From assembly GCA_951406725.2 (NCBI GenBank), contig OX597824.1, forward strand, positions 99,882,001-99,946,000: DNA of 64,000 bases, read 5' to 3'. Made by a program: the position numbers and the translations under genes. Below, in pieces: positions 4,783 to 62,957 of the stretch. The notes below the pieces were generated by a model. The model saw nothing but the letters and a program-made list of their open reading frames with translations. It did not search any database and was not told the DNA's origin. This stretch comes from Octopus vulgaris (taxonomy: Eukaryota). Positions within the stretch are counted from its first letter, which is position 1. Every line of letters starts with the position of its first letter.

Positions 4783-5283
4783 TGCTGTGTGTTTTACTTT
4801 GCCTTATCTAGGGAATAGGGCATCTCAGCCATTTTGGGTTGGTCACAAGGGTATCACTGCTGCACCCTATAAATTAACGCCCTTAAGTTCCTCTACCTCA
4901 TATTTGTGATACCTCATGAAGTGAACATTACAAAGAAAAATGTTCAGATAACTTTTGTTTGTCCAACCTAGCATACTTTTCAGTGCTCTTATTATTATTA
5001 TTATTATTCATTTATTTATCTATTTACCTATAAAGCTTTGTCTATTTCATGTGATATGTTATAGTAAAGAAATCCAAATGTTCAGTTCTGTTTCAGTTTA
5101 TAGCACTCGTATTATTATTATTATTATTATTATTATTTGAGGTATTTCGTGTTGCAAGACAGTGTGTGAGAGAGAATTGTGATGTGGTAGGAGAGAAATG
5201 TGTTCGCATGGAGGATGATTCACTTGCGCTAAATGAGGATGCAAAGAGAGAAGCTTGGAGACGCCACTATGAAAGGTTGCTGA

Positions 5284-7005: not shown

Positions 7006-7159
7006 TCAGGCCATAACCCGTGGCCCCTACCTAGGACGTAGTCAGTCCACCTGTGCATACCTTCCTTCTTGTGACACTTGTGAAGACCTGTTGAGGCAAG
7101 TGAAAATCAAATCAAACAAAATCAAAATAGATGAAAATCAATGGAATTTGTATCTTTGT

Positions 7160-8575: not shown

Positions 8576-9320
8576 CCCACTACACTCTCGGAGTGGTTGG
8601 CGTTAGGAAGGGCATCCAGCTGTAGAAACACTGCCAGATCTGACTGGCCTGGTGCAGCCTTCGGGCTCCCCAGACACCAGTTGAACCGTCCAACCCATGC
8701 TAGCATGGAAAGCGGACGTTAAAGGATGATGATGATGATGATGATTATTATTAGTATTTATTCACCCATTTTATCTATAAAACTTTGTCTATCCTATACT
8801 GTATATTATAGCAAAGTTAAGAAACCCAAATGTTCGATTTTGTTTACTGTAGCCATAAATCTTGTTAATTTTAATCTCTTCATTTGTTTTGTTACCCACT
8901 CTCTTATCCAAATGTTCTATTGTTTCCTCTACTGTAGCCCTAATTCTTGAAAATTTCATATCTCTCTTTCTCTCTCGATGTCTATATATATTCGCTTTGT
9001 TGCCTACTACATTTTCACTCACTCATATTATGTCTGTATCTTTGCTTTCCCATGTTGAATGTTAATTAGCAGCTTTTGCTTTGTTTGTGGACACTTCACA
9101 TTGCTAGGGAATGAGGCAGCCAAGGTGTTTCGTTGTTTTCAGTGCACCCTCCCCCCACCACCTGCTCTGGAAATCTTCCTCATCTAACCTCTACCAGAAG
9201 TTTTTCTCCTAGCACCTCTAATGCTTACCTATATGGTACCCTCTCTCCTGCTTCCATCCATATCTAGTGACTATCTCTTAGTAAATGTAACAAAAATGTA
9301 CATGTGTGCTTTCTTTTCAG

Positions 9321-12300
9321 ATGCAAAATTCTGTCCCCAATCCCTGTGTCTCCCCAGCGCCTCCCCTCCACACCTTTAGAGTTCGCATACTTAATGTGAG
9401 TACATTGAAAGGTAGGTCTGGTGAGATTGTTGAGATGCTTGAGCAGAGACCTGTAGATTTAGCTGCATCCAAGAAATAATGTGGAGAGGCAAAGAGCATA
9501 GGTATAAGATTTACTGAGAGGGGAAAAGTGATAGAGTTTGGGGTGTGGGCAAACTCCTTGTGGAGAAGTGGGTCGATAAGATAATTGAGGTAGTCAGAGT
9601 TTGTGATAGAATACTTAAGCTTAGAATGGTGCTGTAACATGGAACAGCAACCATTATCTCTGCCTATGCCCCTCAGCCAGGTCTACCTGATGAACAGCAA
9701 GACTGGTTTTATGACACTCCCTTGCAGACTACCTCATCGATGAATGACAGGGACCTTCTCTTTATGGCTGGTGACTTCAATGGGAATGTTGGACAACATT
9801 CTGGTAGTTACCATAGTGTGCATGGTGGCAACGGATTTGGTTCCTGCTATGAGGAGGGAACCAAGCTGCTGGAGTTTTGTGATGCAAAGACCTTATGATA
9901 TGCAAAACTGACTTGAGGAAACCTACCAGTCCAGTGGGCACACTAGTTAAATTGACCACATTCTCACCAGGAAATGGGGAATGATGGCTGCTTATAAAGG
10001 CCAAAGCTTTCTCAGGTGAAGAATGCATGCCCTCCCCAGCATAGGTTAGTTGCCAGCGATTTCAAGATCAGGACTAAATGGCTGCCCAGAAGACAACCAG
10101 TGTAGAAAAGAAGGGTCTGGAAGCTTAAAGATCCTCTGAATGGACAGAGATTCAGAGACATATTACTTAAAGCATTTGACAAAAAAGAGAAGGATATAGT
10201 GACATATAATGTTGAGGACAACTGGAGGTTCCTTTGGGACAACTTGTTAAGGGATATGTGGCTGGTACAAAGTCTCCTCTCAACTGAAGGTGACATGGTG
10301 GTGGAACAATGTAGTTGACAGGGCCATTAGAAAAAGGAAACAGGCTTGGAAGGACTGGCAGTCTGGTGGTAGTAGGGAACTATATTAGATAGCCAGAAGG
10401 GAAGCAAGGAGACAGGTATACTTAGCCAGAGGGGAAGCAGTAAAGAAGTTTGCTAATGTTCTGTGCTGTGAGGACCAGAAACTTAAAGTGTTCCAGATTG
10501 CAAGACAGTGTATGAGAGAAAATTGCGATGTCATATGAGAGAAATGAGTCTGCAGGGATGACAGTTCACTTGCATTTAATGATACTGTAAAGAAAGAGGC
10601 TTGGAAATGCCACTATGAAAGGCTGCTAAATAAAGCGAATGAATGAGAGGAGGAGAGTCTGTCAAATGTTGACCCAACTGAGGGACCAGCTATCTGAATC
10701 GACAGTACCTTGGTAGATAAAACAATTAAGGATATGACCCATTAGGAATCACTAGTGAGATGCTTAAAATATCTGGCAATGTGGGTTATGGTCTAGTCAT
10801 CTGTATAGTTAACCAAGTGGTTTACAAAGTGTCATACACAATGACTGGTGTAGCAGCACCATAGTCAACTGGTACAAAGGTAAAGGTGATGCCTTGGATA
10901 GAAATTATTGCAAAGGTATCAAATTGTTGGATCAGGTGATGAAAATCATTGAGAAGGTCATAGCCCAACTAATTAGGGAGAGAGTTAGTCAAGATGAGAT
11001 GCAGTTTGGTTTTGTGCCAGGGAGAAGCACCACCAATGCTATATTTCTGGTAAGGCAGCTGCAGGAGAAATACATAGCCAAAGATAAACCTTGATACTTG
11101 ACTTTTGTTGGCTTGGAAAAAGCCCTTGATAGGGTCTTCTGCTCCATTATCTTGTGGTCAATGCAGGAACTAGGGCTAGATGGGTGGTTGGTGTGAGCTG
11201 TACAAGCCATGTACAGGCATACTGTCAGTAAGGTGAGGGTTGACAATGAGTATAGCAAAGAATTCAGGGTACAAGTAGGGGTTCACCAAAGGTCAGTCCT
11301 CAGCCCCCTCTTGTTCATCATAGTCCTCCAAGCAATAAGGCAAGCTGCCCCTGGGAGCTCCTCTATGCTGATGACCTTGTTCTTATAACTGAATCACTAC
11401 CAGAACTAGAGAAGAAGTTCTAGGTATGGAAACAAGGTCTAGAATCAAAGGGCCTTAGAGTTAACCTAGCAAAAACCGAAGTCTTAGTAAGTAGGAAGGC
11501 AGACAAATCACAAATCCTTTCGGGGAGATGGCCCTGCTCAGTCTGTAAAAAGGCGTAGGTAGAAACTCCATAAGATGTACCCAGTGTAAGCTATGGACAC
11601 ATAAATGGTGCAGCAATATCAGAGGAAGGTTAACAGGGAAAATAGTTTTTATGTGTGAAAGGTGCACAAGTACAATTAACACTAAAAATGTTCAGAAAAT
11701 AGATCCTATAACACGGCAGAGGGGAAAACTAGAAGTAATCAATAGCTTCTGTTACCTAGGTGACCAACTTAGTAGTGGGGGGGGGGGGGTGGATGCTCCA
11801 AGAGCATAGCTGCTGTAATAAGAATTAGTTGGGCAAAGCTAAGAGAGCTCCTATCTCTGCTGGTAACAAATGGTCTCTCTCTCAGAGTAAAAGGTATGAT
11901 GCCAGCATGTAAACAGTCCTGCTACACAGCAGTGAAACATAAGCTGTGGTGGCCAAGAACATGCACAGGCTAGTAAGGAATGAAGCTAGTATGTTCTGCT
12001 GGATGTGTAATGTCAGTGTGCATGCACAACAGAGTGTAAGTGTCCGAGAGAAAAATTGGGGATAAGAGGTGTTATACATGGTGTGCAAGAGAGACAACTA
12101 TGTGTATGGTCATGTAATGCATATGGAGGAGGACAGCTGTATGATGAAGTGCCACATTCTAACAGTGGAGGGAACCTGTGGAAGAGGTAGACAAGCTGTT
12201 GAAGCATGTTCTTCAAATATTGGGCCTCATGGAGACAATGACAAGTGACCAAGATCTTTGGTGATATGCTGTGCTTGAGAAGCCAAGTGAAATTGTAGTT

Positions 12301-12787
12301 GTGGCTGATGCCAGTGTTGTGTAACTGGCACATATAAAACACCCTTCAAAAGTTGGGTTTTAAACTGTGCTTGAGAAGATCTGTCAAGCCAAGTGAAATT
12401 GTAGTTGTGGCCAATGCCAGTGGTGTCTGACTGGCACCTGTGCCAGTGGCTCATAAAATGCAATGTTCAAGCATTTGGCTTCATGGAGCCAGTGACAGTT
12501 GACTAATACCTTTGGTAGTATACCATGCTTGTATTGATCTGTCAAGCCAAGTGAGATTGTAGTCATGGCCGATGCCAGTGTCACATCAGTGGCACCCATG
12601 CTGGTGGAATGTTAAAAGCACCCACTACACTCTTTGAGAGGTTGTTGTTAGGAAGCTTATCCAGCTGTAGAAACCTTGCCAAATCAGATTGGAACCTGAC
12701 ACAGCTCTCTGGCTTACCAGTTTTCAGCCAAGCCATCTAACCCATGCCAGCATGGAAAGTGGATGTTAAATGATGATAATGATGATG
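9321..12787 (+). mobile_element. Near full-length decayed RTE-PHD LINE (APE endonuclease plus RT)
   Basis: EN N-terminus TFRVRILNVSTLKGRSGEIVEML, IISAYAPQ, MAGDFNG; RT with stops and frameshifts; (GAT)n tail. Confidence 0.92.
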
Positions 12788-16200: not shown

Positions 16201-18030
16201 TTAACAAGTGTAATTACAAAGTTATCAAATTGTTGAATCACATGATGAAAGTTACAGGGAGAGAGTCATAGCCCAACTAATTAAAGAGAAAGTCAGTCTA
16301 GATGAGATGCAATTCGGGTTTAGTTTCTGGTAAGGTAGCTGATGTTTTATTTCTGGTAAGGTAGCTTCAAGAGAAATACATAGCTTATGTTGACTTCAAG
16401 AAAGCCTTTGACAAGGTCCCCCAATCCCTTATCTGGTTGTCAATATGGAAACTAGGGATAGACAAGTGGTTGGGTTGTGGAGAGCTGTACAAGCCATGTA
16501 CAGGGACACTACCAATCAGATGAGAGTTAGCAACGAGTACAGCGAAGAATTCAGGGTACAATTGGGGGTCCACCAAAGATCAGTCCTCAGCCCCCTCTTG
16601 TTCATCATAGTCCTCCAGGCAATAAGACAGGCTGTCCTTGGGAGCTCTTCAATGCTGATGACCTTGTTCTTATAACTGAATCACTACTAGAACTAGAGAA
16701 GAAGTTTCAGGTATGGAAGCAAAGTCTAGAATTGAATGGCTTAGAGTTAACCTAGCAAAAACCAAAGCCTTAGAAAGTAGGAAGGCAGACAAATCACAAA
16801 TCCTTTCAGGTAGATGGCCCTGCTCAATCTGCAGAAAAGGCATAGGTAAAACTCCATAAGATGCACCCAGGGTAAACTTTGGATGCATAAAAGGTGCAGC
16901 AATATCAGAGGAAGGTTAATAGGGAAAATAGCTTTTGTATGTGGAAGATGCACAGGTACAATAAACACTGAAAATGTACAGGTAATGGTCTCCATCAACT
17001 GCTATGGGAGTAAGCTAGAGGTAGTAGATAGCTTCTGTTCTCTAGGTGACCAAGTTAGTGGTGGAGGTGGATACTCCGAGAGCATAGCTATGAGAATAAG
17101 ATTAGGTTGGGCAAAGTTCAGAGAGCTCCTACATCTACTGGTAACAAAGAGCCTCTCTTTCAGAGTGAAAGGCAGATTGTATGATGCCTGTGTGTGAACA
17201 GCTATGCTACATGGCAGTGAAACATGGGCTGTGACAGCTGAGGACATGCGTAGGCTTGAAAGAAATGCAGCAAATTTGCTTCACTGGATGTGCAATGACA
17301 GTGTGCATGTTCATCAGAGTGTAAAAATTTTGAGAGAAAAATTGGGGATGAGAGGTGTTAGACGTGGTGTGCAAGATAGACAACTGCACTAGTATGGTGA
17401 AGCACTTGGACAAGGACAGCTGTGTAAAGAAATGCCAGTCTCTAACTGTGGAAGGAACCTGTGGTAGAGGTAGACCCAGGAAAACATGGAACAAGGAGGT
17501 GAAGCATGATCTTCAAACTTTGAGTCTCACAGAGGCAATGACTAGTAACTGAGGCCTTTGGTGGTGTGCTGTGCATGAGAGGACCTGTCAAACCAAGTGA
17601 AATCATTGTTGTGGCTGATCCTGGTGTCTCATTACTGGTACCTATGCTGGTGGTGCGTAAAAAGCACCTTTCAAGCATTGAGCCTCATAGAGGCTAAGTG
17701 GCTGAGCACCTTTTGAGTTTTTGGCCTCACAGAGGCAGTGACTGATACCTTTAGCATTATGTAATACTTGAGAAGAAGACCCATCAAGCCAAGCAAAATT
17801 GCAGTCATGGCAGGTACCAGTGTTACACAAATGGCACTCATACTGGTGGCATGTAAAATTACTCATTGCACTCTCAGAGTTGTTAACATTAGGAAGGGCA
17901 TCCAGCCATAGAAATCACATCAAATCAGACTGGAATCTGGTGCAGCCTTCCAGCTTGCCAATCCTAGTCAAACTGTCCAAGTCATGCCAGCATGGACAAC
18001 GGATGTTAAATGATAAAAATGATAATGATG
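13278..18030 (+). mobile_element. Decayed RTE-PHD LINE interrupted by a DNA transposon
   Basis: RT fragments on either side of 14129-16210 join as ALDRN|NY; tail at about 18030. Confidence 0.9.
14129..16210 (-). mobile_element. Chapaev3-like (CMC) DNA transposon with decayed transposase
   Basis: TAA target duplication (14126-28 and 16211-13), CAY...GTG termini with imperfect TIRs; minus-strand peptides DQDKSWTPHICC, LFIDSSEQSLKAVLLHNGNKYP, SPIHIKLGLMKNF, SLKIHF...AVSDENEERFHQ. Confidence 0.85.
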
Positions 18031-18185: not shown

Positions 18186-19288
18186 CGTGTGCAGCAGATG
18201 CACAGGGGCAATAGATACCACAGATACTCAGAAAACAGATTCCATCATACTCCAGGGTGACAAACTAGAAGTAGTTGATAGTTTCCGCTACCTAGGTGAC
18301 CAAGTTAGTAGTAGAGGTGGATGCTCAGAGAGTGTCACCAATAGAATACGAATAGCTTGGGCAAAGTTTAGAAAGCTTCTACCCCTACTGGTGACAAAGG
18401 GTCTCTTGCTCAGTGTGAAAGGTAGATTGTATGATGTATGTGTGCAAACTGCCATGCTTTATGGCAGTGAAAACTGGGCTGTGACTACAGAGGACATGCA
18501 TAGGCTTGAAAGAAATGAAGCTAGCATGATCCGCTGGATGTGTAATGTCAGTGTGCACGCATGACAGAGTGTAAGCGCCCTGAGAGAAATGCTGGACATA
18601 AGAAGCATCGGATGTGGTGTGCAAGAGAGACGTTTGTGCTGGTATGGTCATATACTACGGATGGATGAGGAGAGATGTGTGAAGAAGTGCCACTCCCAAA
18701 CAATTGAAGGTATCTGAGGTAGCGGTAGACCCAGGAAGACATGGGATGAGGTGGTCAAGCATGACCTTTCAATGTTGGGCTTTACAAAGGCAATGAATAA
18801 AGACCGAGATCTCTGGAGATATGCTGTGACTGCAAAGACCTGACAAATAATGTGAGTTCATGGCTGTTTCCTGCACCAGTTTTGCATAGCCCCAGCCCAT
18901 CCAAAGTACCTTGGATTGCAGAACAACCTGCTGTGCTTACGTTGGATCGTAGGGTGACCTGCTGTGCTTGAGGAGACCTATTGAGTCAAGTACATCAACA
19001 TCAAAATAAATATCAAATGGAAATTGTAGTTGTGTTACCTGTGCCGGTGGCACGTAAAAAGCACCAACCGATCGTGGCCGTTGCCAGCCTCCCCTACCAC
19101 CTGTGCCGGTGCCATGTAAAAAGCATCCACTACACTCATGGAGTGGTTGGCGTTAGGAAGGGCATCCAACTGTAGAAACACTGCCAGATCAGACTGGAGC
19201 CTGGTGCAGCCCCCTGGCTTCCCAGACCCTGGTCAAACTGTCCAACCCATGCTAGCATGGGAAACGGACATTAAACAATGATGATGAT
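18186..19288 (+). mobile_element. 5'-truncated RTE-PHD LINE
   Basis: ORF 18187-18564 (FRYLGDQV, MLYGSENW), 3' UTR modules, (GAT)n tail. Confidence 0.9.
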
Positions 19289-20430: not shown

Positions 20431-22003
20431 CTAATAGCTGAGTCACTACCAGAACTAGAGAAGAAATTTCAAGTATGGAAGAAAGGTCTAGAATCAAAGG
20501 GCCTTAAGGTCAATCTAACAAAAACCAAAGTCTTAGTAAGTAGAAAAGTAGACAAATCACAAATCCAGTCAAGTAGATGGGCCTGTTCAGTCTGTAGAAA
20601 AGGCATAGGTAGAAACTCTATAAGATGTACCTGGTGTAAAATACAGACACTTAAGAGGTGCAGCAATATCAAAGGAAGGTTAACGGGGAAGATAGTTATT
20701 TTATATGTGGCAAGTGCACAGGAGCAATAAACAGCAATGATGTACAGAAAACAAACTGCATTATTTGCTAAGGAGAAAAATCAAGTAGTTGATAGCTTCC
20801 GTTACCAAAGTGACCAAGTTAGTAGAAGTGTGTAGCTGCAAGAATAAGAATAAGCTGAGCAAAGCTCAGAGAGCTCCTATCTCTGCTGGTAACAAAGGGC
20901 CTCTCACTCAGAGAGAAAGGTAGATTGTATGATGCATGTCTGCAAACAGCTGTGCTACATGGCAGTGAAACATGGGCTGTGATTACTGAGGACATGTGTA
21001 GGCTTGAAAGAAATGAAGTTAGTATGATCCACTGGATGTGTAATGTCAGTGTGCATACACAACAAAGAGTAAGCACCCTGAGAGAAAAGTTGGACATAAA
21101 AAGCATCAGATCTGGTGTGCAAGAGATATGACTATGCTGGCATGGTCATGTGTTGCATATGGACGAGGGCAGTTGTGTGAAGAAGTTTCACACTCTAACA
21201 GTGGAGGGAACATGGAAGAGGTAGACCCAAGAAGACATGGGATGAGGTGATGAAGCATGACCTTTCAATGTTGGGCTTTACAAAGGCTATGACAAGTGAT
21301 CAAGACCCTCCACACATTGACAATAGGATCCACACATTGACAATAGGTTGTAGTGTTCACAATGAGACAGCAAGCTGTAATGTTCAAAGAGACAATAAAC
21401 TGTATGAGATATGCTGTGCTTCAGAAGACCTGGCAAGCCAAGTGAGATCATAGCTATGGCCAATGCCAGTGTCACATAACTGGCCCTATTAAATGTGCTT
21501 GAGAAGATCTTTTGTGTCAAGTGAAATCAATCATAGTCGTGGCCGATGTCAGTGCCACCTGACTGGCACCCATGTTGGTGGCACATGAAAAGCACCATTT
21601 AAGTGTGGTCAATGCCAGTGCCACCTGACTGGCACCCATGCTCGTGGCACATAAAATGCACCATTTGAGCATGACTGATGCCAGTGTCACCTGACTGGCA
21701 TTTAAAAAGCACCATTCAAGTGTGGTCAATGACTTGCTCGCATGCTGGTAGCACATAAAAAAGCCCCATTTGAATATGTTCGATGCCAGTGCTGCCTGAC
21801 TGGCTCCCATGCTGGTGGTACATAAAAAGCACCCACTACACTCTCGGAGTGGTTGGCGTTAGGAAGGGCATCCAGCTGTAGAAACCTTGCCAGATCAGAT
21901 AGGAGCCTGGTGCAGCCTCCTGGCTTGCCAGTCGTCAGTCAAACTATCCAACCCATGCTAGCATGGAAAGCAGATGTTAAATGATGATGATGATGATGAT
22001 GAT
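20425..22003 (+). mobile_element. 5'-truncated RTE-PHD LINE with about 5 UTR modules
   Basis: Decayed RT C-terminal half, modules at 21540-21835, (GAT)n tail. Confidence 0.9.
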
Positions 22004-23034: not shown

Positions 23035-23745
23035 TGTTTTCATCACCATCACCACAATCATTGTTTAATGTCTGCTCTCCATGCTAGCATGGGTTAGACA
23101 ATTTGACTGGAGTTGATGGAGAGCTGCACCAGGTTCTTGTCTTATTTGGTAGGGTTTCTTCAGCTGGATGCCATTCCTAACACCAGCCACTCCAGGAATG
23201 TAATGGATGTTTTTATGTGCCACCAGCACAGGTGCCATTTAAATGATGTAGGCAACAACCATGACTATGATTGACAAGTGGGTGCCATTTACATTGTCCT
23301 GGCAACGGCCACAACTGCAATGCACAGGTGTCATTTGCATGGCACCAGCAGTGACCATGACAATTCATGGGTGCCATATGCAATAACTACAACTCATGGG
23401 TGCTGTTGACATGGAACCACCAACGATCATGATTCCCAGGTGCCAATGTACAGGATACCCTCAATGACCACGACTACAATGCACAGGTGTCATTTGCATG
23501 GCACTGGCATCAACTGCAACAATTCACAGGTGCCATGTACATAGTACCGTCAACAACCTCAACTATGATGCATGGGTGTCATTTATACGGCACTGGCAAT
23601 GAACGACTACGATTCACAGGTGCCATTTACATGACACTGGCATGGCCACAACTATAATTTCACTTGGCCTGACAAGTCTTCTCCCACACAGCGTATCGCC
23701 AGAGCTCTCAGTCACTTGTCATCACCTCTGTGAGGTCCAATGTTT
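23035..23745 (-). mobile_element. RTE-family 3' end, minus strand, with degenerate tandem modules of about 55 bp
   Basis: catcac tail, ggatgccattcc box, repeated caggtgccattt...ggcaac...actac units at 23230-23650. Confidence 0.8.
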
Positions 23746-31958: not shown

Positions 31959-32063
31959 GTCGAAGATGAAGAATTTGATTGTAATCTGCAAAAATTTATT
32001 TCTGTTCAGAAAACTGTGTCTGATTTAAAAAAGAACCTTGAAGATTACCTCAAAGAATTTGAG
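31959..32063 (+). CDS. RhoGEF exon 5 (BAR helix 1)
   Basis: attatAG|...GAG|GTaagc; VEDEEFDCNLQKFISVQKTVSDLKKNLEDYLKEFE has the BAR start motif D..F.....F......L..YL. Confidence 0.88.
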
Positions 32064-32484
32064 GTAAGCTTTTGTCTATGTTTAGTTTTGTCATTATAAA
32101 GGAGATTTCATAACTTATTAAATTGTTTGTTACCTTAGTTTTATTTCTAAGGCAAGTCATCTTAGCCTGCCATATCTTTATTTCAGCTACACTTTTAAAA
32201 AGACTGAAACTTTGTTAATGAAATACCATATCAAATATACTTAACTACTGTTATTGTACCAACTAATAGTACAGTTTGTATTGAAGTATTTAACACTTAA
32301 GTCTTCTGGCCAGAGACTCAGTACTATTGATAAGAAAAAAATTCATGGATTCACATAGCAACTGGTTACTAATGTCAAAACACAGGCTTCAACTTGTCAG
32401 ACTTTACATCATTCTCTTAAAACCTGTTTCGTTTTAAAGTTTTCTGTTCTGTATATGTAGATAAGAAAAAAAAAAAAAAACCAG

Positions 32485-33170: not shown

Positions 33171-33952
33171 ACTATTGGGAGGTGGCTGCAGATTTACCAG
33201 GGTGCCAAGGATTTTTTACCGTTCCAGTTACAAAAAAAGCTAGATATTATAATGTGGTGTGAAAGAAAGAAAGTAGGGAATCAACTTGAGTTAATGGTTC
33301 TTTGTCAAGATAACGTGGATGCCGCTTGGGCTCAAATGATTGCCCGTCATGTAAACCCCCTTGAGGCAGGAAAGCAGAGCATTTTCCAAATGAAATTGGA
33401 TGTAGAAGATTCATTGGACACAGTGTGAGGTGACTGTTGTTATCATTAGGCCTAACTCATCATAAAGTAAATACCACCATGAACAATATCCAAACGACAG
33501 TGGAAAAGGCTGGGTACTGGATTTGGTTAAAAAGAGATGATGAGCAATGGCTAGAAGAATATTAAGCTTTATTTGATAACCAGTTGATCTAGCAAGCAGG
33601 GTCTCATATCAATGAGAGGGGCCGGTGCTCATTGATGCCGTCGAGAGGTAGGTCCCAAAATGGCGTGCATTCTCTCCTGATGATCCCATACACTTGCTGG
33701 CTGTGTGCATTCGACTGGTAGCATTTGCATGTGAAAGTTGTCTGCAAAACTTCAATTTCAGGTTTGTTAAATGATTTCTCATTGATTTTTATTTTGTGTC
33801 CCTAAATTTCCTATGTTTTTATACAATGTCCAAAAATCAATTACCCATTGATGTTTGTTATTTTAGCTTAGTGTAGATTTTCCAAAAAAATTACTGTTTG
33901 AAAATAACAAACAAATTTTTATATCCTGAAAAGTAGTGTTGCCAGCTGCATG

Positions 33953-36900
33953 AACCATTCGAGTGTGGCTGATGCCAGTGCTGCCTGACTGGCACCCGTG
34001 CTGGTGACATGTAAAAAGTACCATTTGAGCCTGGCCAATGCCAGGGCTGCCTGATCAATGCCAGGGCTGCCTGACTGGCACCCGTGCTGGTGACATGTAA
34101 AAAGTACCATTTGAGCCTGGCCAATGCCAGGGCTGCCTGACCAATGCCAGGGCTGCCTGACTGGCACCCGTGCTGGTGACATGTAAAAAGTACCATTTGA
34201 GCCTGGCCAATGCCAGGGCTGCCTGACTGGTACCCGTGCTGGTGACATGTAAAAAGTACCATTTGAGCCTGGCCAATGCCAGGGCTGCCTGACTGGCACC
34301 CGTGCTGGTGACATGTAAAAAGTACCATTTGAGCCTGGCCAATGCCAGGGCTGCCTGACTGGCACCCGTGCTGGTGACATGTGAAAAGTACCATTTGAGC
34401 CTGGCCAATGCCAGGGCTGCCTGACTGGCACCTGTGCTGGTGACATGTAAAAAGTACCATTTGAGCCTGGCCAATGCCAGTGTGCTGCCTGACTGGCACC
34501 CGTGCTGGTGACATGTGAAAAGTACCATTTGAGCCTGGCCAATGCCAGGGCTGCCTGACTGGCACCCATGCTGGTGACATGTAAAAAGTACCATTTGAGC
34601 CTGGCCAATGCCAGTGCTGCCTGACTGGCACCCGTGCTGGTGACATGTGAAAAGTACCATTTGAGCCTGGCCAATGCCAGGGCTGCCTGACTGGCACCCG
34701 TGCTGCTGATGACATGTAAAAAGTACCATTTGAGCCTGGCCAATGCCAGGGCTGCCTGACTGGCACCCGTGCTGGTGACATGTGAAAAGTACCATTTGAC
34801 CTGGCTAATGCCAGTGCTGCCTGACTGGCACCCATGCTGGTGACATGTAAAAAGTACCATTTGAGCCTGGCCAGTGCCAGGGCTGCCTGACTGGCACCCG
34901 TGCTGGTGACATGTAAAAAGTACCATTTGAGCCTGGCCAATGCCAGGGCTGCCTGACTGGCACCCGTGCTGGTGACATGTAAAAAGTACCATTTGAGCCT
35001 GGCCAATGCCAGGGCTGCCTGACCAATGCCAGGGCTGCCTGACTGGCACCCGTGCTGGTGACATGTAAAAAGTACCATTTGAGCCTGGCCAATGCCAGGG
35101 CTGCCTGACTGGTACCCGTGCTGGTGACATGTAAAAAGTACCATTTGAGCCTGGCCAATGCCAGGGCTGCCTGACTGGCACCCGTGCTGGTGACATGTAA
35201 AAAGTACCATTTGAGCCTGGCCAATGCCAGGGCTGCCTGACTGGCACCCGTGCTGGTGACATGTGAAAAGTACCATTTGAGCCTGGCCAATGCCAGGGCT
35301 GCCTGACTGGCACCTGTGCTGGTGACATGTAAAAAGTACCATTTGAGCCTGGCCAATGCCAGTGCTGCCTGACTGGCACCCGTGCTGGTGACATGTGAAA
35401 AGTACCATTTGAGCCTGGCCAATGCCAGGGCTGCCTGACTGGCACCCATGCTGGTGACATGTAAAAAGTACCATTTGAGCCTGGCCAATGCCAGTGCTGC
35501 CTGACTGGCACCCGTGCTGGTGACATGTGAAAAGTACCATTTGAGCCTGGCCAATGCCAGGGCTGCCTGACTGGCACCCGTGCTGCTGATGACATGTAAA
35601 AAGTACCATTTGAGCCTGGCCAATGCCAGGGCTGCCTGACTGGCACCCGTGCTGGTGACATGTGAAAAGTACCATTTGACCTGGCTAATGCCAGTGCTGC
35701 CTGACTGGCACCCATGCTGGTGACATGTAAAAAGTACCATTTGAGCCTGGCCAGTGCCAGGGCTGCCTGACTGGCACCCGTGCTGGTGACATGTAAAAAG
35801 TACCATTTGAGCCTGGCCAATGCCAGGGCTGCCTGACTGGCACCTGTGCTGGTGACATGTAAAAAGTACCATTTGAGCCTGGCCAATGCCAGGGCTGCCT
35901 GACTGGCACCCGTGCTGGTGACATGTAAAAAGTACCATTTGAGCCTGGCCAATGCCAGTGCTGCCTGAGTGGCACCCGTGCTGGTGACATGTAAAAAGTA
36001 CCATTTGAGCCTGGCCAATGCCAGGGCTGCCTGACTGGCACCCGTGCTGGTGACATGTAAAAGTACCATTTGAGCCTGGCCAATGCCAGTGCTGCCTGAC
36101 TGGCACCCGTGCTGGTGACATGTAAAAGTACCATTTGAGCCTGGCCAATGCCAGGGCTGCCTGACTGGCCACCCGTGCTGGTGACATGTAAAAAGTACCA
36201 TTTGAGCCTGGCCAATGCCAGGGCTGCCTGACTGGCACCCGTGCTGGTGACATGTAAAAAGTACCATTTGAGCCTGGCCAATGCCAGGGCTGCCTGACTG
36301 GTACCCGTGCTGGTGACATGTGAAAAGTACCATTTGACCTGGCCAATGCCAGTGCTGCCTGACTGGCACCCGTGCTGGTGACATGTAAAAAGTACCATTT
36401 GACCTGGCCAATGCCAGTGCTGCCTGACTGGCACCCATGCTGGTGACATGTGAAAAGTACCATTTGAGCCTGGCAAATGCCAGGGCTGCCTGACTGGCAC
36501 CCGTGCTGGTGACATGTGAAAAGTACCATTTGACCTGGCCAATGCAAGTGCTGCCTGACTGGCACCCATGCTGGTGACATGTAAAAGTACCATTTGAGCC
36601 TGGCCAATGCCAGTGCTGCCTGACTGGCACCCATGCTGGTGACATGTAAAAAGTACCATTTGACCTGGCCAATGCAAGTGCTGCCTGACTGGCACCCATG
36701 CTGGTGACATGTAAAAAGTACCATTTGAGCCTGGCCAATGCCAGTGCTGCCTGACTGGCACCCGTGCTGGTGACATGTGAAAAGTACCATTTGACCTGGC
36801 CAATGCAAGTGCTGCCTGACTGGCACCCATGCTGGTGACATGTAAAAAGTACCATTTGAGCCTGGCCAATGCCAGTGCTGCCTGACTGGCACCCGTGCTG

Positions 36901-39900
36901 GTGACATGTAAAAAGTACCATTTGACCTGGCCAATGCCAGTGCTGCCTGACTGGCACCCGTGCTGGTGACATGTGAAAAGTACCATTTGAGCCTGGCCAA
37001 TGCCAGGGCTGCCTGACCAATGCCAGTGCTGCCTGACTGGCACCCGTGCTGGTGACATGTAAAAAGTACCATTTGACCTGGCCAATGCCAGTGCTGCCTG
37101 ACTGGCACCCGTGCTGGTGACATGTGAAAAGTACCATTTGAGCCTGGCCAATGCCAGGGCTGCCTGACCAATGCCAGGGCTGCCTGACTGGCACCCGTGC
37201 TGGTGACATGTAAAAAGTACCATTTGAGCCTGGCCAATGCCAGGGCTGCCTGACTGGTACCTGTGCTGGTGACATGTAAAAAGTACCATTTGAGCCTGGC
37301 CAATGCCAGTGCTGCCTGACTGGCACCTGTGCTGGTGACATGTAAAAAGTACCATTTGAGCCTGGCCAATGCCAGGGCTGCCTGACTGGCACCTGTGCTG
37401 GTGACATGTAAAAAGTACCATTTGAGCCTGGCCAATGCCAGGGCTGCCTGACTGGCACCTGTGCTGGTGACATGTAAAAAGTAACATTTGAGCCTGGCCA
37501 ATGCCAGGGCTGCCTGACTGGCACCTGTGCTGGTGACATGTAAAAAGTACCATTTGAGCCTGGCCAATGCCAGTGCTGCCTGACTGGCACCCGTGCTGGT
37601 GACATGTAAAAAGTACCATTTGAGCCTGGCCAATGCCAGGGCTGCCTGACTGGCACCTGTGCTGGTGACATGTAAAAAGTACCATTTGAGCCTGGCCAAT
37701 GCCAGGGCTGCCTGATTGGCACCTGTGCTGGTGACATGTAAAAAGTACCATTTGAGCCTGGCCAATGCCAGTGCTGCATGACTGGCACCCGTGCTGGTGA
37801 CATGTAAAAAGTACCATTTGAGCCTGGCCAATGCCAGGGCTGCCTGACTGGCACCTGTGCTGGTGACATGTAAAAAGTACCATTTGAGCCTGGCCAATGC
37901 CAGGGCTGCCTGACTGGCACCTGTGCTGGTGATATGTAAAAAGTACCATTTGAGCCTGGCCAATGCCAGTGCTGCCTGACTGGCACCCGTGCTGGTGACA
38001 TGTAAAAAGTACCATTTGAGCCTGGCCAATGCCAGGGCTGCCTGACTGGCACCTGTGCTGGTGACATGTAAAAAGTACCATTTGAGCCTGGCCAATTCCA
38101 GGGCTGCCTGACTGGCACCTGTGCTGGTGACATGTAAAAAGTACCATTTGAGCCTGGCCAATGCCAGGGCTGCCTGACTGGCACCTGTGCTGGTGACATG
38201 TAAAAAGTACCATTTGAGCCTGGCCAATGCCAGGGCTGCCTGACTGGCACCTGTGCTGGTGACATGTAAAAAGTACCATTTGAGCCTGGCCAATGCCAGT
38301 GCTGCCTGACTGGCACCCGTGCTGGTGACATGTAAAAAGTACCATTTGAGCCTGGCCAATGCCAGGGCTGCCTGACTGGCACCTGTGCTGGTGACATGTA
38401 AAAAGTACCATTTGAGCCTGGCCAATGCCAGGGCTGCCTGACTGGCACCCGTGCTGGTGACATGTAAAAAGTACCATTTGAGCCTGGCCAATGCCAGTGC
38501 TGCCTGACTGGCACCCGTGCTGGTGACATGTAAAAAGTACCATTTGAGCCTGGCCAATGCCAGGGCTGCCTGACTGGCACCTGTGCTGGTGACATGTAAA
38601 AAGTACCATTTGAGCCTGGCCAATGCCAGGGCTGCCTGACTGGCACCTGTGCTGGTGACATGTAAAAAGTACCATTTGAGCCTGGCCAATGCCAGGGCTG
38701 CCTGACTGGCACCTGTGCTGGTGACATGTAAAAAGTACCATTTGAGCCTGGCCAATGCCAGTGCTGCCTGACTGGCACCCGTGCTGGTGACATGTAAAAA
38801 GTACCATTTGAGCCTGGCCAATGCCAGGGCTGCCTGACTGGCACCTGTGCTGGTGACATGTAAAAAGTACCATTTGAGCCTGGCCAATGCCAGGGCTGCC
38901 TGACTGGCACCTGTGCTGGTGACATGTAAAAAGTACCATTTGAGCCTGGCAAATGCCAGGGCTGCCTGACTGGCACCCGTGCTGGTGACATGTGAAAAGT
39001 ACCATTTGACCTGGCCAATGCAAGTACTGCCTGACTGGCACCCATGCTGGTGACATGTAAAAAGTACCATTTGAGCCTGGCCAATGCCAGTGCTGCCTGA
39101 CTGGCACCCGTGCTGGTGACATGTAAAAAGTACCATTTGAGCCTGGCCAATGCCAGGGCTGCCTGACTGGCACCCGTGCTGGTGACATGTAAAAAGTACC
39201 ATTTGAGCCTGGCCAATGCCAGTGCTGCCTGACTGGCACCCGTGCTGGTGACATGTAAAAAGTACCATTTGAGCCTGGCCAATGCCAGGGCTGCCTGACT
39301 GGCACCTGTGCTGGTGACATGTAAAAAGTACCATTTGAGCCTGGCCAATGCCAGTGCTGCCTGACTGGCACCCGTGCTGGTGACATGTAAAAAGTACCAT
39401 TTGAGCCTGGCCAATGCCAGGGCTGCCTGACTGGCACCTGTGCTGGTGACATGTAAAAAGTACCATTTGAGCCTGGCCAATGCCAGGGCTGCCTGACTGG
39501 CACCTGTGCTGGTGACATGTAAAAAGTACCATCTGAGCCTGGCCAATGCCAGGGCTGCCTGACTGGCACCTGTGCTGGTGACATGTAAAAAGTACCATTT
39601 GAGCCTGGCCAATGCCAGTGCTGCCTGACTGGCACCCGTGCTGGTGACATGTAAAAAGTACCATTTGAGCCTGGCCAATGCCAGGGCTGCCTGACTGGCA
39701 CCTGTGCTGGTGACATGTAAAAAGTACCATTTGAGCCTGGCCAATGCCAGGGCTGCCTGACTGGCACCCGTGCTGGTGACATGTAAAAAGTACCATTTGA
39801 GCCTGGCCAATGCCAGTGCTGCCTGACTGGCACCCGTGCTGGTGACATGTAAAAAGTACCATTTGAGCCTGGCCAATGCCAGGGCTGCCTGACCAATGCC

Positions 39901-41370
39901 AGAGCTGCCTGACTGGCACCCGTGCTGGTGACATGTAAAAAGTACCATTTGACCTGGCCAATGCCAGTGCTGCCTGACTGGCACCCGTGCTGGTGACATG
40001 TGAAAAGTACCATTTGAGCCTGGCAAATGCCAGGGCTGCCTGACTGGCACCCGTGCTGGTGACATGTGAAAAGTACCATTTGACCTGGCCAATGCAAGTA
40101 CTGCCTATCTGGCACCCATGCTGGTGACATGTAAAAAGTACCATTTGAGCCTGGCCAATGCCAGTGCTGCCTGACTGGCACCCGTGCTGGTGACATGTAA
40201 AAAGTACCATTTGAGCCTGGCCAATGCCAGGGCTGCCTGACTGGCACCCGTGCTGGTGACATGTAAAAAGTACCATTTGAGCCTGGCCAATGCCAGTGCT
40301 GCCTGACTGGCACCCGTGCTGGTGACATGTAAAAAGTACCATTTGAGCCTGGCCAATGCCAGGGCTGCCTGACCAATGCCAGAGCTGCCTGACTGGCACC
40401 CGTGCTGGTGACATGTAAAAAGTACCATTTGAGCCTGGCCAATGCCAGGGCTGCCTGACTGGCACCCGTGCTGGTGACATGTAAAAAGTACCATTTGAGC
40501 CTGGCCAATGCCAGGGCTGCCTGACTGGCACCCGTGCTGGTGACATGTAAAGAGTACCATTTGAGCCTGGCCAATGCCAGGGCTGCCTGACCAATGCCAG
40601 AGCTGCCTGACTGGCACCCGTGCTGGTGACATGTAAAAAGTACCATTTGAGCCTGGCCAATGCCAGGGCTGCCTGACTGGCACCCGTGCTGGTGACATGT
40701 AAAAAGTACCATTTGAGCCTGGCCAATGCCAGTGCTGCTTGGCTGGCACCCATGCTGGTGACATGTAAAAAGTACCATTTGAGCCTGGCCAATACCAGGG
40801 CTGCCTGACTGGCACCCGTGCTGGTGACATGTGAAAAGTACCATTTGAGCCTGGCCAATGCCAGGGCTGCCTGACTGGCACCCGTGCTGGTGACATGTAA
40901 AAAGTACTATTTGAGCCTGGCCAATGCCAGTGCTGCTTGGCTGGCACCCGTGCTGGTGACATGTAAAAAGTACCATTTGAGCCTGGCCAATGCCAGGGCT
41001 GCCTGACTGGCACCCGTGCTGGTGACATGTAAAAAGTACCATTTGAGCCTGGCCAATGCCAGTGCTGCTTGGCTGGCACCCGTGCTGGTGACATGTAAAA
41101 AGTACCATTTGAGCCTGGCCAATGCCAGGGCTGCCTGACTGGCACCCGTGCTGGTGACATGTAAAAAGTACCATTTGAGCCTGGCCAATGCCAGTGCTGC
41201 TTGGCTGGCACCCGTGCTGGTGACATGTAAAAAGTACCATTTGAGCCTGGCCAATGCCAGGGCTGCCTGACTGGCACCTGTGCTGGTGACATGTAAAAAG
41301 TACCATTTGAGCCTGGCCAATGCCAGTGCTGCTTGGCTGGCACCCATACTGGTGACACGTATAAAGCACC
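33953..41370 (+). repeat. 7.4-kb minisatellite of a 66-bp unit (about 110 copies) derived from the RTE 3' UTR module
   Basis: Unit CTGGCCAATGCCAGGGCTGCCTGACTGGCACCCGTGCTGGTGACATGTAAAAAGTACCATTTGAGC; continues directly into the family tail. Confidence 0.98.
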
Positions 41371-41525
41371 CCCTACACTCTGAGTTGTTGGCGTTAGGAA
41401 GGGCATCCAGCTGTAGAAATCTTGCCAAATGAGATTGGAGCTGGTGCAGCCTCCCAGCTTGCCAATCTTTAGTCAAACCCTCCAACCCATGTCAGCACGG
41501 AAAGCAGACATGATGCTGATGATGT
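41371..41525 (+). mobile_element. RTE-family terminal tail closing the large array
   Basis: ctacactct...ttggcgttaggaagggcatccagctgtagaaa...ccaacccatg...gatgctgatgatg. Confidence 0.9.
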
Positions 41526-41763
41526 TCATTATCTTCTGAAAAGCCATTCATAACCTGTGTTATTTTATTAACATTAATGGTGAAGGAATGGTTTGAAACA
41601 CTAGACTAAGTGCTTTGCTGGAAGTATTTACTTTCCTGCTCTTCTGTTCTCATTGTTTCCATCTTCCCTAAGTTGATAAAATAGATATTAATCTGACCAA
41701 CAACAAAGTTGTAAGTGATATAAAAAATCAGTTTTCTATCATATTTTTTTGCTTCTGTTTCAG

Positions 41764-41892
41764 AAATCAATGATTACTTTCGATGAACTTGTTAGTCATG
41801 TTGTTGTTTTATATGGAGACGAAGCAAGGAATTTATTTGTCTTTCATTTACAAGAACTCAACAAGTCTTCTTGTTCCATTTGTCAATCAGTA
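41764..41892 (+). CDS. RhoGEF exon 6 (BAR)
   Basis: ctgtttcAG|...GTA|GTaagt; open 129 nt, phase 0-0: KSMITFDELVSHVVVLYGDEARNLFVFHLQELNKSSCSICQSV. Confidence 0.78.
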
Positions 41893-42511
41893 GTAAGTAA
41901 CTTGTTTAATTTTTCAATTTTTTAGCAATTGAGGTTGAGGTGTTTGATGATGTCTAAATAGACATCAATAAGTTTCAAAGTATTTATGGTGTCTAGTTCT
42001 GAAAAAAAAAAATAATAATTTCCCCACTCATGTTAACATAGAAAATGGATGTTAATCTGTTGTAATATCTGAAAAAAAAAGTCTGCTGTAATATCTGAAT
42101 TTATTCTTTTTTTTCAAATGCTTTGATCATATTTACTAATTTTTGTATTGGAATATGTAATTAGCACTATCTTGACTGTCTCATAAATTGTGTAGAAATA
42201 CGGTTTAAATCCTATTTTTATCACATCTGTATTCATTCCCCATTTATGGATAAGATATTGTACAAGAGCTGACAGGATTGTTCCCAGTCAAGTCGAAATA
42301 TTGCCTATTGACCTAATCGTTTCCCCTTAATTTGTTCAAGTGATGATTATGGCCACAACACAATTCTTGGTAGTTTTGTTTATCAATAAACAGATATCAT
42401 TGATTGATAAAATTCCTTAATAACAATCAGTGGTTAGTTGTTATTGTTAAAAAGGCAGTATTTGATATTAAGAAGCTCCATTTGGATGTTTCAAAGTGAG
42501 CTTTGGTACAT

Positions 42512-42770: not shown

Positions 42771-45160
42771 TCATTTGATGAGGCTGCAAAGAGAGAGGTT
42801 TGGAGATGCCACTATGAAAGGTTGCTGAATAAAGAAAATGAAAGGGAGAAAGAGAGTATGCCGAATGTCGACCCAACAGAGGGACCAGCTATCCGAGTTG
42901 ACAGTACCTTGATAAATAAAGCAATTAAGAGTATGGAAACAGGGAAAGCCCCCGGCCCATCAGGAATTACTGCAGAGATGCTCAAAATATCTGGCAGTAT
43001 CGGCTATAGCCTAGTCACCTATATAGTTAACCACAAAGTCATACCCAATGACTGGTGTAGCAGCGCTATAGTCAACTGCTACAAAGGTAAAGGTGACGCT
43101 TTAGATACAAATAATTACAGAGGTATCAAGCTGTTGGATCAGGTAATGAAGGTCATGGAGAGGGTCTTAGCCCAACTAATTAGGGACTGAGTCGGTTTAG
43201 ATGAGATGCAGTTTGGGTTCGTGCCAAGGAAAAGCACCACTGATGCTATATTTCTAGTAAGACAGCTGCAGAAGAAGTATCTGGCTTTTTTTGACATGGA
43301 GAAAGCCTTTGACAGGGTCCCCCGATACCTTATCTGGTAGTCAATGAGGAAACTAGAGATAGATGAATGGTTAGTGAGAGCTGTGCAAGCCATGTACAGG
43401 GACGCTGTCAGTAAGGTGAGGGTTGGCAATGAGTACAGTGAAGAATTCAGGCTAGAGGTAGGGGTCCACCAGGGCTTAGTCCTCAGCCCCCTCCTATTTA
43501 TCATAGTCCTCCAGGCAATAACAGAGGAATTCAAGACAGGATGCCCCTGGGAGCTCCTCTATGCTGATGACCTTGCTCTAATTGCTGAGTCACTGTCAGA
43601 ACTAGGAGAAGTTTCAGGTGTGGAAACAAGGATTAGAATCGAAGGCCCTTAGAGTCAACCTAGCTAAAACCAAAGTCCTCATAAGTAGGAAGGCAAACCA
43701 CAAATCCCTTCAGGTAGATGGCCCTGCTCGATCTGTAGTGGAGGCGTAGGTAGAAAATCTATAAAATGTACCCAGTGTTAGCTATGGACACATAAGAGGT
43801 GCAGTAATATCAAAGGAAGGCTAACTTGGAAGATAGTTTTTGTATGTGGCAGATACTCTGGAGCAATAAACTCTGAAAATGTGCAGAGAATAGCTTCCAT
43901 CGCATTCCAGAGAGAAAAACTAGAAGTAGTTGATAGCTTCTGTTACCTAGGTGACCAAGTCAGTAGCGGGGGTGGGTGCGCTGAAAGTGTAGTTGCTAGA
44001 ATAAGAATAGCTTGGGCAAAGTTTAGAGAGCTCTTACCTCTGCAGGTGAAAAAGGGTCTATCACTCAGAGTAAAATGTAGACTGTATGATGCATGTGTAC
44101 GAACAGCCATGCTACATGGCAATGAAACATGGGCTGTGACTGCTGAGGACATGCGTAAGCTCACTAGGAATGAAGCCAGCATGATCCGATGGATGTGTAA
44201 TGTCAGTGTGCATACTCGACAGTGTAAATACCTTGAGAGAAAAGTTGGACCTAAGAAGCATCAGATGTGTGCAAGAGAGACAACTGCGCTGGTATGGTCA
44301 TGTGGCGAGAATGGATGAGAATAACTGTGTGAAAAAGTGCCATACCCTAGCAGTTGAGGGAACCTGTGGAAGAGGTAGACCAGGAAGACCTGGGATGAAG
44401 TGGTGAAGCACGACCTTTGAACTTTAGGCCTCACCAAGGAAATGACTAGTGATTGAGACTTGGAAATATGTTGTGCTTGAGAAGACCTGGCAAGTCATAT
44501 GAGACCATAACCTCGTGGCCTATGCCAGGGGTGTAACCAGCCCACTTATGCATACCTTTTCCTTCTTTGGACACTAAAACTCTGCTTGTGAAGACCTGTT
44601 GAGACAAGTGAAATCAAAATCAAATTTGATGACTGGCATCCGTGCTAGCGGGGTACAAAGAGCACCATACGAGTGTGATTGTTGACAGAGCAGCTAACCG
44701 GCTTCTGTTCCAGTGGTACATAAAAGGCACCATTTGAGTGTGATCGTTACCAGCGTTGCCTTACTGGCACTTGAGCCCCATGCTAGTAGGGTGCCAAGAG
44801 CACCATCTGAGCGTGTTCGTTGCCAGAGTGGCTAACTGGCTTCTGTGCTAGTGGCACATAAAAAGAACCATTCAAGCATGATCGTTACCAGCATCGCTTT
44901 ACTGGCACCTGTGCCGGTGGCATGTGTAAAAGATTCAAGCAAGGTTGTTGCCAGTACCACCTGACTGGCTCCGTGCCGGTGGCACGTAAAAGCACCCACT
45001 ACACTCTCGGAGTGGTTGGCGTTAGGAAGGGCATCCAGCTGTAGAAATTCTGCCAGATCAAGATTGAAGCCTGGTGCAGCCATCTGGTTCGCCAGCCCTC
45101 AGTCAAATCATCCAACCCATGCTATCATGGACAGCGGATGTTAAACAATGATGATGATGA
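42771..45160 (+). mobile_element. 5'-truncated RTE-PHD LINE with about 6 UTR modules
   Basis: ORFs 42600-44406 are RT pieces including YADD; (GAT)n tail at about 45160. Confidence 0.93.
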
Positions 45161-47551: not shown

Positions 47552-48318
47552 TAGGCTTGTAAGAAATGAAGCTAGTATGCTCCGCTGGATGTGTAATGTC
47601 AGTGTGCATGTATGACAGAGTGTGAGTGTCCTGAGAGAAAAGTTGGACATAAGAATCATTAGATGTGGTGTGCAAGAGAGACAACTGCACTGGTATGGGC
47701 ATGTGATGCATATGTGAAGAGGTAGACTCAGGAAGACATGGGATGAAGTGGTGAAGCACAATCTTTGAATGTTGGGTCTCACAGAGGCAATGACAAGTTA
47801 CCAAGACCATTAGAGATATGCCGTGCTTGAGAAGACCCGTCAAGCCAGGTGGGATCATTGTGATGGCTGATGCTAGTGTCACCTGACTGGCACCCGTGCT
47901 GATGACATGTAAAAAACACAATTTGAGCATGGCTGATGCCGGAGCTGATTGGCTCCTGTGCCAGTGGAGATTGTAGTTGTGGCCGATGCCAGTGTCACCT
48001 GACTGGCACCCGTGCCGGTGGCATGTAAAAAGCACCATTCAAGTGTGGCCAATGCCAGAGCTGCCTGACTGGCATATAAAGGGCATCATTTGAGCGTGGC
48101 TGATGCCAGGGACGCCTGACTGACACCCATGCCAGTGGCTCGTAAAAAATAACCTACTACACTCTGGGAGTGGTTGGTGTTAGGAAGAGTATCCAGATGT
48201 AGGAACCTTACCAAATCAGATTGGAGCTTGGTGCAGCCTTTTAGCTCACTAGTTCTCAGTCAAACCATCCAACCCATGCGAGCATGGAAAGCAGACGTTA
48301 AATGATGATGATGATGAT
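47552..48318 (+). mobile_element. RTE-PHD 3' fragment with about 5 modules
   Basis: RNEASMLRWMCNV, modules at 47870-48155, (GAT)n tail. Confidence 0.88.
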
Positions 48319-53072: not shown

Positions 53073-53745
53073 ATCATCATCATCATCATCATCGTTTAAT
53101 GTCCGTTTTCCATGCTGGCATGGGTTGGACAGTTTGACTGAGGTCTGGAGAGCCACTGGCTGCACCAGGCTCCAGTCTGATCTGGCAATGTTTTTACAGT
53201 TGGATGCCCTTCCTAATGCCAACCACGGGAGCCAGTCAATGGGTAGTGGCATTGGCCGTATTTGGACGGTGTTTTTCCTGTGCCACCAGCACAGGGGCCA
53301 GTCAGGTGAATCTGGCATCAATCACATTCAGATAGTGCTTGTTATGTGCCACTAGCATGGGGGCCAGTCAGAGGGTATTGGCATTGACCACACTTGGATG
53401 GTGCTTTTTACATGCCACTGGCACGGGAGCCAGTAGGGGACACTGGCATCGATTACGTTCAGATGATGCATTTTATGTGCCACCAGAATGGAAGCCAGTC
53501 AGTTGGCACTGGCCACAGCTGCGATTTTGGTTTTACTTTACTGTCCAACCCATGCTAGCATGGAAAGCGGATGCTAAACGATGATGATGATGATGATGAT
53601 GATTCACTCAACAGGCCTTCTCAAGCATATCATATCACCTGAAGCACCAAGGATACTCTTAAATGGGCTGAACATGCAACACTGACATTGACCATGGCTG
53701 CAATCTCACTTTAGTTGCTGGGTCTTCTCAATCACAGCAGATCTC
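53073..53745 (-). mobile_element. RTE-family 3' end, minus strand, with a nested plus-strand tail of about 60 bp (53540-53602)
   Basis: (CAT)n start; internal ctgtccaacccatgctagcatgg...(GAT)n. Confidence 0.8.
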
Positions 53746-62472: not shown

Positions 62473-62515
<43 letters not shown>

Positions 62516-62516
62516 G

Positions 62517-62914
62517 CGTGATTGTTGCCAGGTCTGCTGACTGGCTCCTGTGCCGGTGACATGTAAAAAACACCATTCGAGCATGATCATTACCAGCATT
62601 GCCTTACTGGTGGCATGTAAAAGACAACATTTGAGCGAGGTTGTTGCCAGTACCACTGGACTGGCTCCTGTGCAGGTGGCACGTAAAAACACCATTTGAG
62701 TATGGCCATTGCCAGTACCACCTGACTGGCCTCGTGCCAGTAGCACATAAAAGCACCCACTACACTCTCGGAGTGGTTGGCATTAGGAAGGGCATCCAGT
62801 TGTAGAAACTCTGCCAAATCAGATTGGAACCTGGTACAGCCATCTGGCTTGCCAGTCCTCAGTCAAACCGTACAACCCATGCCAGCATGGAAAGCGGACG
62901 TTAAACAATGATTA

Positions 62915-62916
<2 letters not shown>
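62517..62916 (+). mobile_element. RTE-family 3' end (about 4 modules plus tail) inside (TA)n
   Basis: Modules, ggaagggcatccag box; (TA)n on both flanks (62487-62515 and 62917-62954). Confidence 0.88.

Positions 62917-62957
<41 letters not shown>

Follow-up and report, generated by a model that had tools for sequence, protein, structure and literature searches.

Two intronic minisatellites in one octopus gene

The window analysed here is a 64,000-nt stretch of Octopus vulgaris DNA (GCA_951406725.2, OX597824.1:99,882,001–99,946,000, forward strand). It lies in a dynamin-binding-like gene: the protein P0121 (named dynamin-binding 38-like [Octopus vulgaris]) gives 12 exon hits spanning the window, and these hits place both of the minisatellites described below in introns of this one gene. 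The larger of the two, which occupies 7.4 kb, sits between a host exon at about 31959–32072 (P0121 hit) and a host exon at 41764–41892 on the plus strand (100% identity to P0121). Both arrays belong to copies of a long interspersed nuclear element (LINE), which we take to be RTE-type from its architecture, its close protein hits being unnamed.

The large array (33960–41370, plus strand) consists of 110 units, mostly of 66 bp and in 43 variants; its tandem units fall within 10–100 bp and its variants are interspersed, as in a minisatellite. Tandem Repeats Finder (TRF) placed the 66-bp array at about 33954–41370, decomposition gave 109 anchored units plus one leading unit, and a profile built from natural modules gave 110 full hits. 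Nine of the anchored units are lengthened, eight of them by a 20-bp internal duplication. The mean pairwise identity is 96.7% (100 of the 109 anchored units compared), and 33 mutation events were counted, of which 15 are singletons in 7,282 bp (0.2%; 0.12–0.34%). Carriers of a variant cluster along the array, with a mean gap of 7.6 against 11.5, and none of 2000 shuffles was as tight. The variant map also contains a 13-unit block duplication at 34101–35862 (plus strand), the two copies of which (882 and 880 bp) differ by one 2-bp indel and one substitution. The first and last units retain some of the states found in dispersed modules, and the internal units have lost them. The 7.4-kb length is that of the assembly.

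The surrounding DNA has an observed-to-expected CpG ratio of 0.19; the ratio is 0.12 in the large array (34000–41340) and 0.92 in the small array (7300–8560). Long open frames on the minus strand of the large array were considered as a gene and rejected, being a by-product of a unit that is free of stop codons.

Ahead of the first unit lies a degenerate partial module (33934–33959, plus strand) that would mark the start of a 5′-truncated insertion, the boundary being set by a candidate target-site duplication. The left 15-bp copy of this duplication (33919–33933, plus strand) is identical at 13 of 15 positions to its right partner (41529–41543, plus strand). At its 3′ end the array runs straight into the LINE tail at 41370. 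No open reading frame (ORF) is attached to this copy, the nearest ORF piece stopping at 33166.

The second array (7159–8578, plus strand) comprises one partial module, two diverged lead modules and 20 units that alternate between two 62-bp types about 8% apart. Decomposition and profile agree on 22 units, and TRF placed the 62-bp array at 7241–8577. There is again a block duplication, of six units (373 bp, 2 differences). The tail of this copy (8570–8746, plus strand) has 4 private changes in 128 positions of the tail alignment. The copy also retains the 3′ part of the LINE ORF as an open frame of 573 codons (5284–7005, plus strand), with a reverse transcriptase (RT) domain (PF00078, E 3.9e-32) and a weak PHD-like stretch that falls below the cut-off (PF00628, E 2.3e-4). 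The sequences at 4991–5093 and 8738–8845, which flank the small-array copy on both sides, match over about 105 bp with 74% identity.

The unit sequences of the two arrays are 32% apart. In a unit tree of 57 rows, which included 14 of the large array's variants, the large-array unit clustered with long-type modules and the small-array unit with the short-type module of the sibling copies at 19117 and 29542 (97/91, rough bootstrap values that are not settled). A preliminary description of this DNA had proposed that the two arrays expanded independently, and the distance and the tree agree with this. It had also described each array as internally homogeneous, which holds for the large array but not for the small one with its alternating types.

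The module is part of the LINE 3′ untranslated region

The module profile gave 192 hits in the window and all 192 lie inside 15 tail-bearing copies of the LINE, compared with 0, 0, 0, 0 and 1 hits in five shuffled windows (best 9.4 bits). Thirteen of the 15 copies have 1–6 hits each; the remaining two have 22 and 110. The tail itself was found 18 times, three of these being fragments without a module (32622, 53544 and 54522). The earlier proposal that a LINE module was the seed of the arrays, and that the 7.4-kb array ends on the LINE tail, is thus borne out, and no long array of modules independent of the tail was found in the window. The counts previously given for individual copies also agree with the profile: one full and one partial module at 19040, five and one at both 21540 and 44630, five at 47870 and four at 62520, besides the 22 and 110 of the arrays. 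Eight further copies, with tails at 3561, 12615, 17870, 23192, 29542, 42694, 50337 and 53226, have 1–6 module hits.

Adjacent modules within the 13 short copies are far from identical: none of 26 pairs reached 95% (median 72%, maximum 87%), and the 87% pair belongs to the copy with the least changed tail (five-module cassette at 21456–21995, plus strand; 1 change in 128). The cassettes therefore appear to have been inherited already diverged. Module distance was 0.30 within a copy and 0.32 between copies. Rank-by-rank orthology of modules between copies was rejected, as it was not above chance (10 of 39 against 8.5 expected); the nearest module lay in the same copy for 7 of 39, against 2.8 expected.

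An ORF ends directly upstream of 9 of the 15 tails, so modules and tail together constitute the LINE's own 3′ untranslated region (UTR). Of the remaining six copies, some are interrupted and the others begin at various positions within the UTR or cassette; such scattered starts fit ordinary 5′ truncation rather than a short interspersed nuclear element (SINE) with a fixed start. Nor, with nine copies following an ORF end and the starts of the rest scattered, do the 15 copies form a free-standing bipartite non-autonomous RTE element with a fixed 5′ end.

The most complete copy (9321–12780, plus strand) is near full length and decayed, with an endonuclease start, RT, three modules and the tail, and one former frame; its 9321–12282 portion aligns along one full-length relative protein. 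Relatives of 1,004–1,130 aa (48–56% identity) mostly have PF03372 and PF00078, often with a PHD domain, in a single frame. A single ORF with apurinic/apyrimidinic (AP) endonuclease followed by RT, and a microsatellite 3′ end (GAT repeats close the tails), are both traits of the RTE clade. The very short 3′ UTR that is typical of the clade, though not defining, is not seen here: from ORF end to tail end the unexpanded window copies measure about 260–690 nt.

Among the other copies on the plus strand are a short sibling cassette of one full and one partial module with tail (19037–19286), a cassette of five modules and one partial with tail (44629–45138), a five-module cassette with tail (47864–48316) and an ORF-less copy truncated within its cassette (four modules) with tail, lying in an (AT)n tract (62516–62899). 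On the minus strand, the copy at 23068–23658, with its tail at 23192, has about ten decayed half-modules of 43–46 bp, then one full module and the tail; the half-modules (23432–23658) resemble a third, older local expansion. In one subfamily (3300–3570, 12230–12620 and 17530–17860) the duplicated unit is 150–190 bp long and consists of the ORF end and one module. Some copies lie inside TAT/AT tracts or the GAT tail of another copy (5110–5137/8730–8750, 62490–62955 and 53544–53592), which suggests an insertion preference for microsatellite targets.

A search of the module against Rfam families gave no hits. A conserved pseudoknot was rejected as unproven, covariation in 32 long-type modules being 0.200 against 0.207 when shuffled; single modules folded with z of −0.8 to −2.4 and RNAalifold gave no consensus. 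By Rfam, covariation and RNAalifold the module thus resembles neither a ribozyme-bearing retrozyme nor another structured RNA. Homologs of the module were found in none of three 5′-UTR regions of relatives and in none of 79 and 8 further loci (best E 0.33). Tail-pattern scans of metagenome and viral contigs gave no hits, and a protein scan of viral contigs gave none that was confirmed. The literature searched holds no description of the module or array; Repbase and Dfam, which lay outside that search, may already list the family.

The tail is composite

To compare the tails we aligned 14 of the 18 hits, leaving out the three fragments and the internally deleted 29542. In 22 related loci with an ORF end, the 3′ UTR is mostly about 50–110 nt long and the module is present in none. 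Only the last 40 nt of the window tail (profile positions 118–157) match the 3′ ends of these relatives (L081, E 0.0017; L011, E 0.022). In the large-array copy, this RTE-type 3′ terminus of about 40 nt, with decayed GAT repeats, lies at 41477–41524 (plus strand). The middle of the tail has a different match: profile positions 24–69 align with L081:3994–4039 (E 1.1e-9), L081:180–225 (5.4e-5) and L002:212–257 (0.003), about 140–230 nt upstream of the ORF start in three of the five relatives with upstream DNA (L081 twice, and L002). By the tail alignment, this block resembling a 5′-UTR motif of related RTE-type LINEs (GGAAGGGCATCC core) is at 41384–41429 (plus strand) in the large-array copy. 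The preliminary description had spoken of a fixed terminal tail; the tail does recur, but it is composite and has the bipartite layout of a 5′-UTR part joined to a 3′ end.

In the 79 metagenome loci the motif core turns up a further 11 times, against 0–3 times in shuffles, and most of these extra cores sit in a dispersed repeat that ends in the 3′ end of those loci's LINEs. This SINE-like repeat of about 250 bp (L009, L014, L025, L027, L031, L033, L041, L059, L061 and L071) has a common 5′ start, the RTE 5′-UTR motif and the local RTE 3′ end. The loci L080–L085 are RTE-type LINEs within bacterial genome bins and are presumably animal contamination. At L002:170–240, and at that locus only, a 7-mer downstream of a hairpin could base-pair with the hairpin loop, just ahead of the 5′-UTR motif.

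We lean somewhat towards an origin of the long UTR by capture, in which a bipartite, internally deleted RTE unit (5′-UTR motif plus 3′ end) would have replaced the short ancestral 3′ end. The motif is missing upstream of two of the five related ORF starts (L058 and L080), which counts against this account, and the window's single decayed 5′ end has no 5′-UTR motif. The origin of the module is left unexplained by the account that we favour.

Evidence from sequenced samples

Half or more of the words of 41170–42500 were present in 7 of 20 sample rows. In run X20 (organism E, share 0.48), three contigs that show 3 differences over 714 bp cover the tail and flank, and one contig crosses the tail-to-flank junction (41411–41631) with 1 difference. 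A 64-bp contig in the same run, identical to the 3′ variant of the array, had a depth of 72.9, against 4.6–5.2 on the flank. The 31-mers of this contig occur 3–5 times each in the window (mean 3.7), and its depth is about fourfold above what the window predicts. The X20 data support a real multi-unit array; they also hint at a different allele, but contig depth is not equal to copy number and other loci may have contributed.

The raw runs X21 and X22 each comprise 1,934 million letters, equal to an expected coverage of about 0.7x if the genome is 2.8 Gb. Only 4 partial reads from X21 and 10 from X22 could be placed; none lay on units, and the unique flank was left uncovered. Because these runs were picked by species label only, they were given no weight and used neither for nor against the array. 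In X22, ten reads at loose ends at 41378 and 41382 have later tail sequence immediately before the tail motif, which suggests that the tail core exists in head-to-tail repeats elsewhere.

Age and mode of array growth

The tail of the large-array copy carries 11 private changes in 127 columns that are conserved among the 14 tails (8.7%, 95% confidence interval (CI) 4.4–15%), together with small deletions. If the 110 units had aged separately for as long as this tail, they would be expected to be about 84% alike and to hold about 630 private changes, compared with the observed identity of 96.7%. On a calibration in the available text of PMC13282606, where a distance of 0.09 corresponds to about 25 million years (Myr), the insertion would very roughly be 12–40 Myr old and the last turnover of the array far younger.

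From the observed anatomy, counts, variant maps, block duplications and gap in change between tail and array, we infer the following history of insertion and amplification. An octopus RTE-type LINE carries 1–6 diverged modules of 62–66 bp in a long 3′ UTR, and retrotransposition likely spreads this short cassette unchanged. A single module, or a pair of them, is then likely to grow by later DNA-level changes into a minisatellite of kilobase size at some of the loci. The copy at 33934–41524 would have inserted as a 5′-truncated piece with few modules and a 15-bp target duplication, and its unit would have gathered changes before amplification. The amplification itself may have combined slippage of one or two units with unequal exchange or conversion for larger blocks; the latter are assigned to exchange or conversion because 882 bp exceeds the limit of roughly 200 bp for slippage given in the available text of PMC4432496. 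We therefore consider it likely that a LINE-borne cassette gave rise to the large array, as a minisatellite, by growth after insertion.

Several observations weigh against this reading. Homogeneity dates the last turnover and not the first expansion, and an array that was inserted long and homogenised later would look similar. The 'private' changes of the tail may include differences between source subfamilies. The target duplication is modest evidence, since random pairs of 55-mers equalled 13 of 15 matches in 1.3–3.2% of trials, and a clear duplication was sought at seven other copies, three of them ending in microsatellites, and found at none. The age gap is narrower for the small array (tail 4/128, CI 0.9–7.8%), and because its two unit types differ by more than the tail has aged, the types probably predate the insertion and came with the source element. 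The excess of nearest modules within the same copy, with no match by rank, indicates that cassettes also remodel, slowly, in source lineages. Among the samples, X10 (organism C, share 0.07) yielded no long flank piece, neither an empty site nor a short orthologous allele was seen, and loci elsewhere could account for the fourfold excess depth of the 3′ variant in X20.

The preliminary description had allowed for RT slippage or template re-jumping as well as for post-insertion exchange. The contrast between tail (8.7%) and array (0.2%), the block duplication and the clustering of variants speak for growth after insertion. An origin of the whole array in a single insertion event, through slippage or re-priming of RT on the module, seems very improbable, even though slippage has been proposed, in the available text of PMC2887409, for RTE microsatellite tails during retrotransposition and the module is able to fold into a hairpin (81.5% of cells paired): not one of the 26 adjacent pairs in the 13 short copies is near-identical (maximum 87%), the nested variants and block duplications require many rounds, and the tail and the array differ in age. 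An assembly error affecting the 7.4-kb length or the 882-bp block of an otherwise real array is improbable too. The 43 variants lie in ordered clusters, the exact variant contig has a high depth in X20, a run with a separate label, and the host protein is recorded on a 100-Mb contig; on the other side, no spanning read was seen, the X21 and X22 reads fell on neither the units nor the unique flank, and near-perfect block duplications can be mis-joins.

It had further been suggested that the 7.4-kb copy moved as a non-autonomous array-plus-tail RNA, which would resemble an SVA element transcribed from an already expanded source locus. The copy does lack an adjacent ORF, as had been noted, its 3′ terminus is intact, and the extra depth of the 3′ variant in X20 would fit, although other loci could explain it. 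Such an RNA is, however, not needed, as in five other copies, too, no full ORF end is directly attached, and their starts differ. The scattered starts of ORF-less copies, the old tail with its small deletions beside young units, and the absence of any unit type common to both arrays make this route unlikely on the evidence of the window.

Significance and comparison with known systems

The window holds 15 module-bearing tails in 64 kb, and 2 of the 15 are expanded, a rate that is probably overstated because the window was picked for its arrays. If the pattern is general, intron length and variable number tandem repeat (VNTR) polymorphism in octopus would owe much to a single LINE family, whose many loci, replicates of one seed that differ in age, could serve to test for the triggers of expansion. 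If capture is true, the composite tail would represent traffic from a non-autonomous unit back into an ORF-bearing LINE. More speculatively, bipartite capture might have made the 3′ UTR of an octopus LINE lineage modular, so that each insertion leaves a minisatellite seed behind; many thousands of independent polymorphic kilobase VNTRs would then be possible in octopus genomes, a heavily replicated natural experiment on minisatellite birth, and the motif at the 3′ end might have promoter activity towards adjacent DNA.

The comparisons that follow rest on the available portions of the cited papers. Tandem repeats in the 3′ UTR of Ogre long terminal repeat (LTR) retrotransposons expand into satellites (Vondrak et al., PMC7004042; PMC9659126; both cite Macas 2009 for the Ogre repeats). 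Ogre, like this LINE, is a dispersed element whose short 3′-UTR arrays mostly stay short while a few expand; here, by contrast, the element is an animal non-LTR element and the expansion is intronic and kilobase-scale, not centromeric. The VNTR of SVA and LAVA shows that a repeat within a non-LTR element can be remodelled as DNA (Lupan et al., PMC4432496), and SVA shares with this LINE the internal repeat, the conserved end units and this mode of remodelling. The VNTR of the non-autonomous SVA is central, whereas here the seed lies in the 3′ UTR of an ORF-bearing LINE and the cassette is short and diverged; the window evidence is against SVA-like mobilisation of the long array as a unit. Human tandem repeats derived from transposons also start within the element and grow by local duplication over time (Ahmed and Liang, PMC3389668), but in the octopus window the seed is a pre-duplicated cassette, which each of the full copies with a tail contains.

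Bipartite non-autonomous RTE elements and the bodies of RTE-derived SINEs join a 5′-UTR block to an RTE 3′ end (Kojima, PMC5786205), a layout that recurs as a dispersed repeat in related loci (11 copies). Here, unlike in those elements, the block stands behind the ORF of the LINE itself, an arrangement not found in the available text of PMC5786205, and the 12-nt core is absent from the available text of its supplement. RTE elements are known to seed microsatellites and typically have a very short 3′ UTR (PMC2887409). RTE-2_OV of Octopus vulgaris, with a single ORF of ~1,100 aa and a 3′ UTR of about 600 nt (Petrosino et al., PMC9115989), is like this LINE an octopus RTE-clade element with a single ORF and a long 3′ UTR. 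By description only, it differs in that its 3′ UTR is mostly microsatellite and its zinc finger is C2H2; it may be the same family. Repeat growth from transposon-borne units is thus an already documented route, of which the present case is a variant with a composite 3′ end, and its novelty, as judged from sequence matches, is that the end of the LINE bears a motif that its relatives carry at the front.

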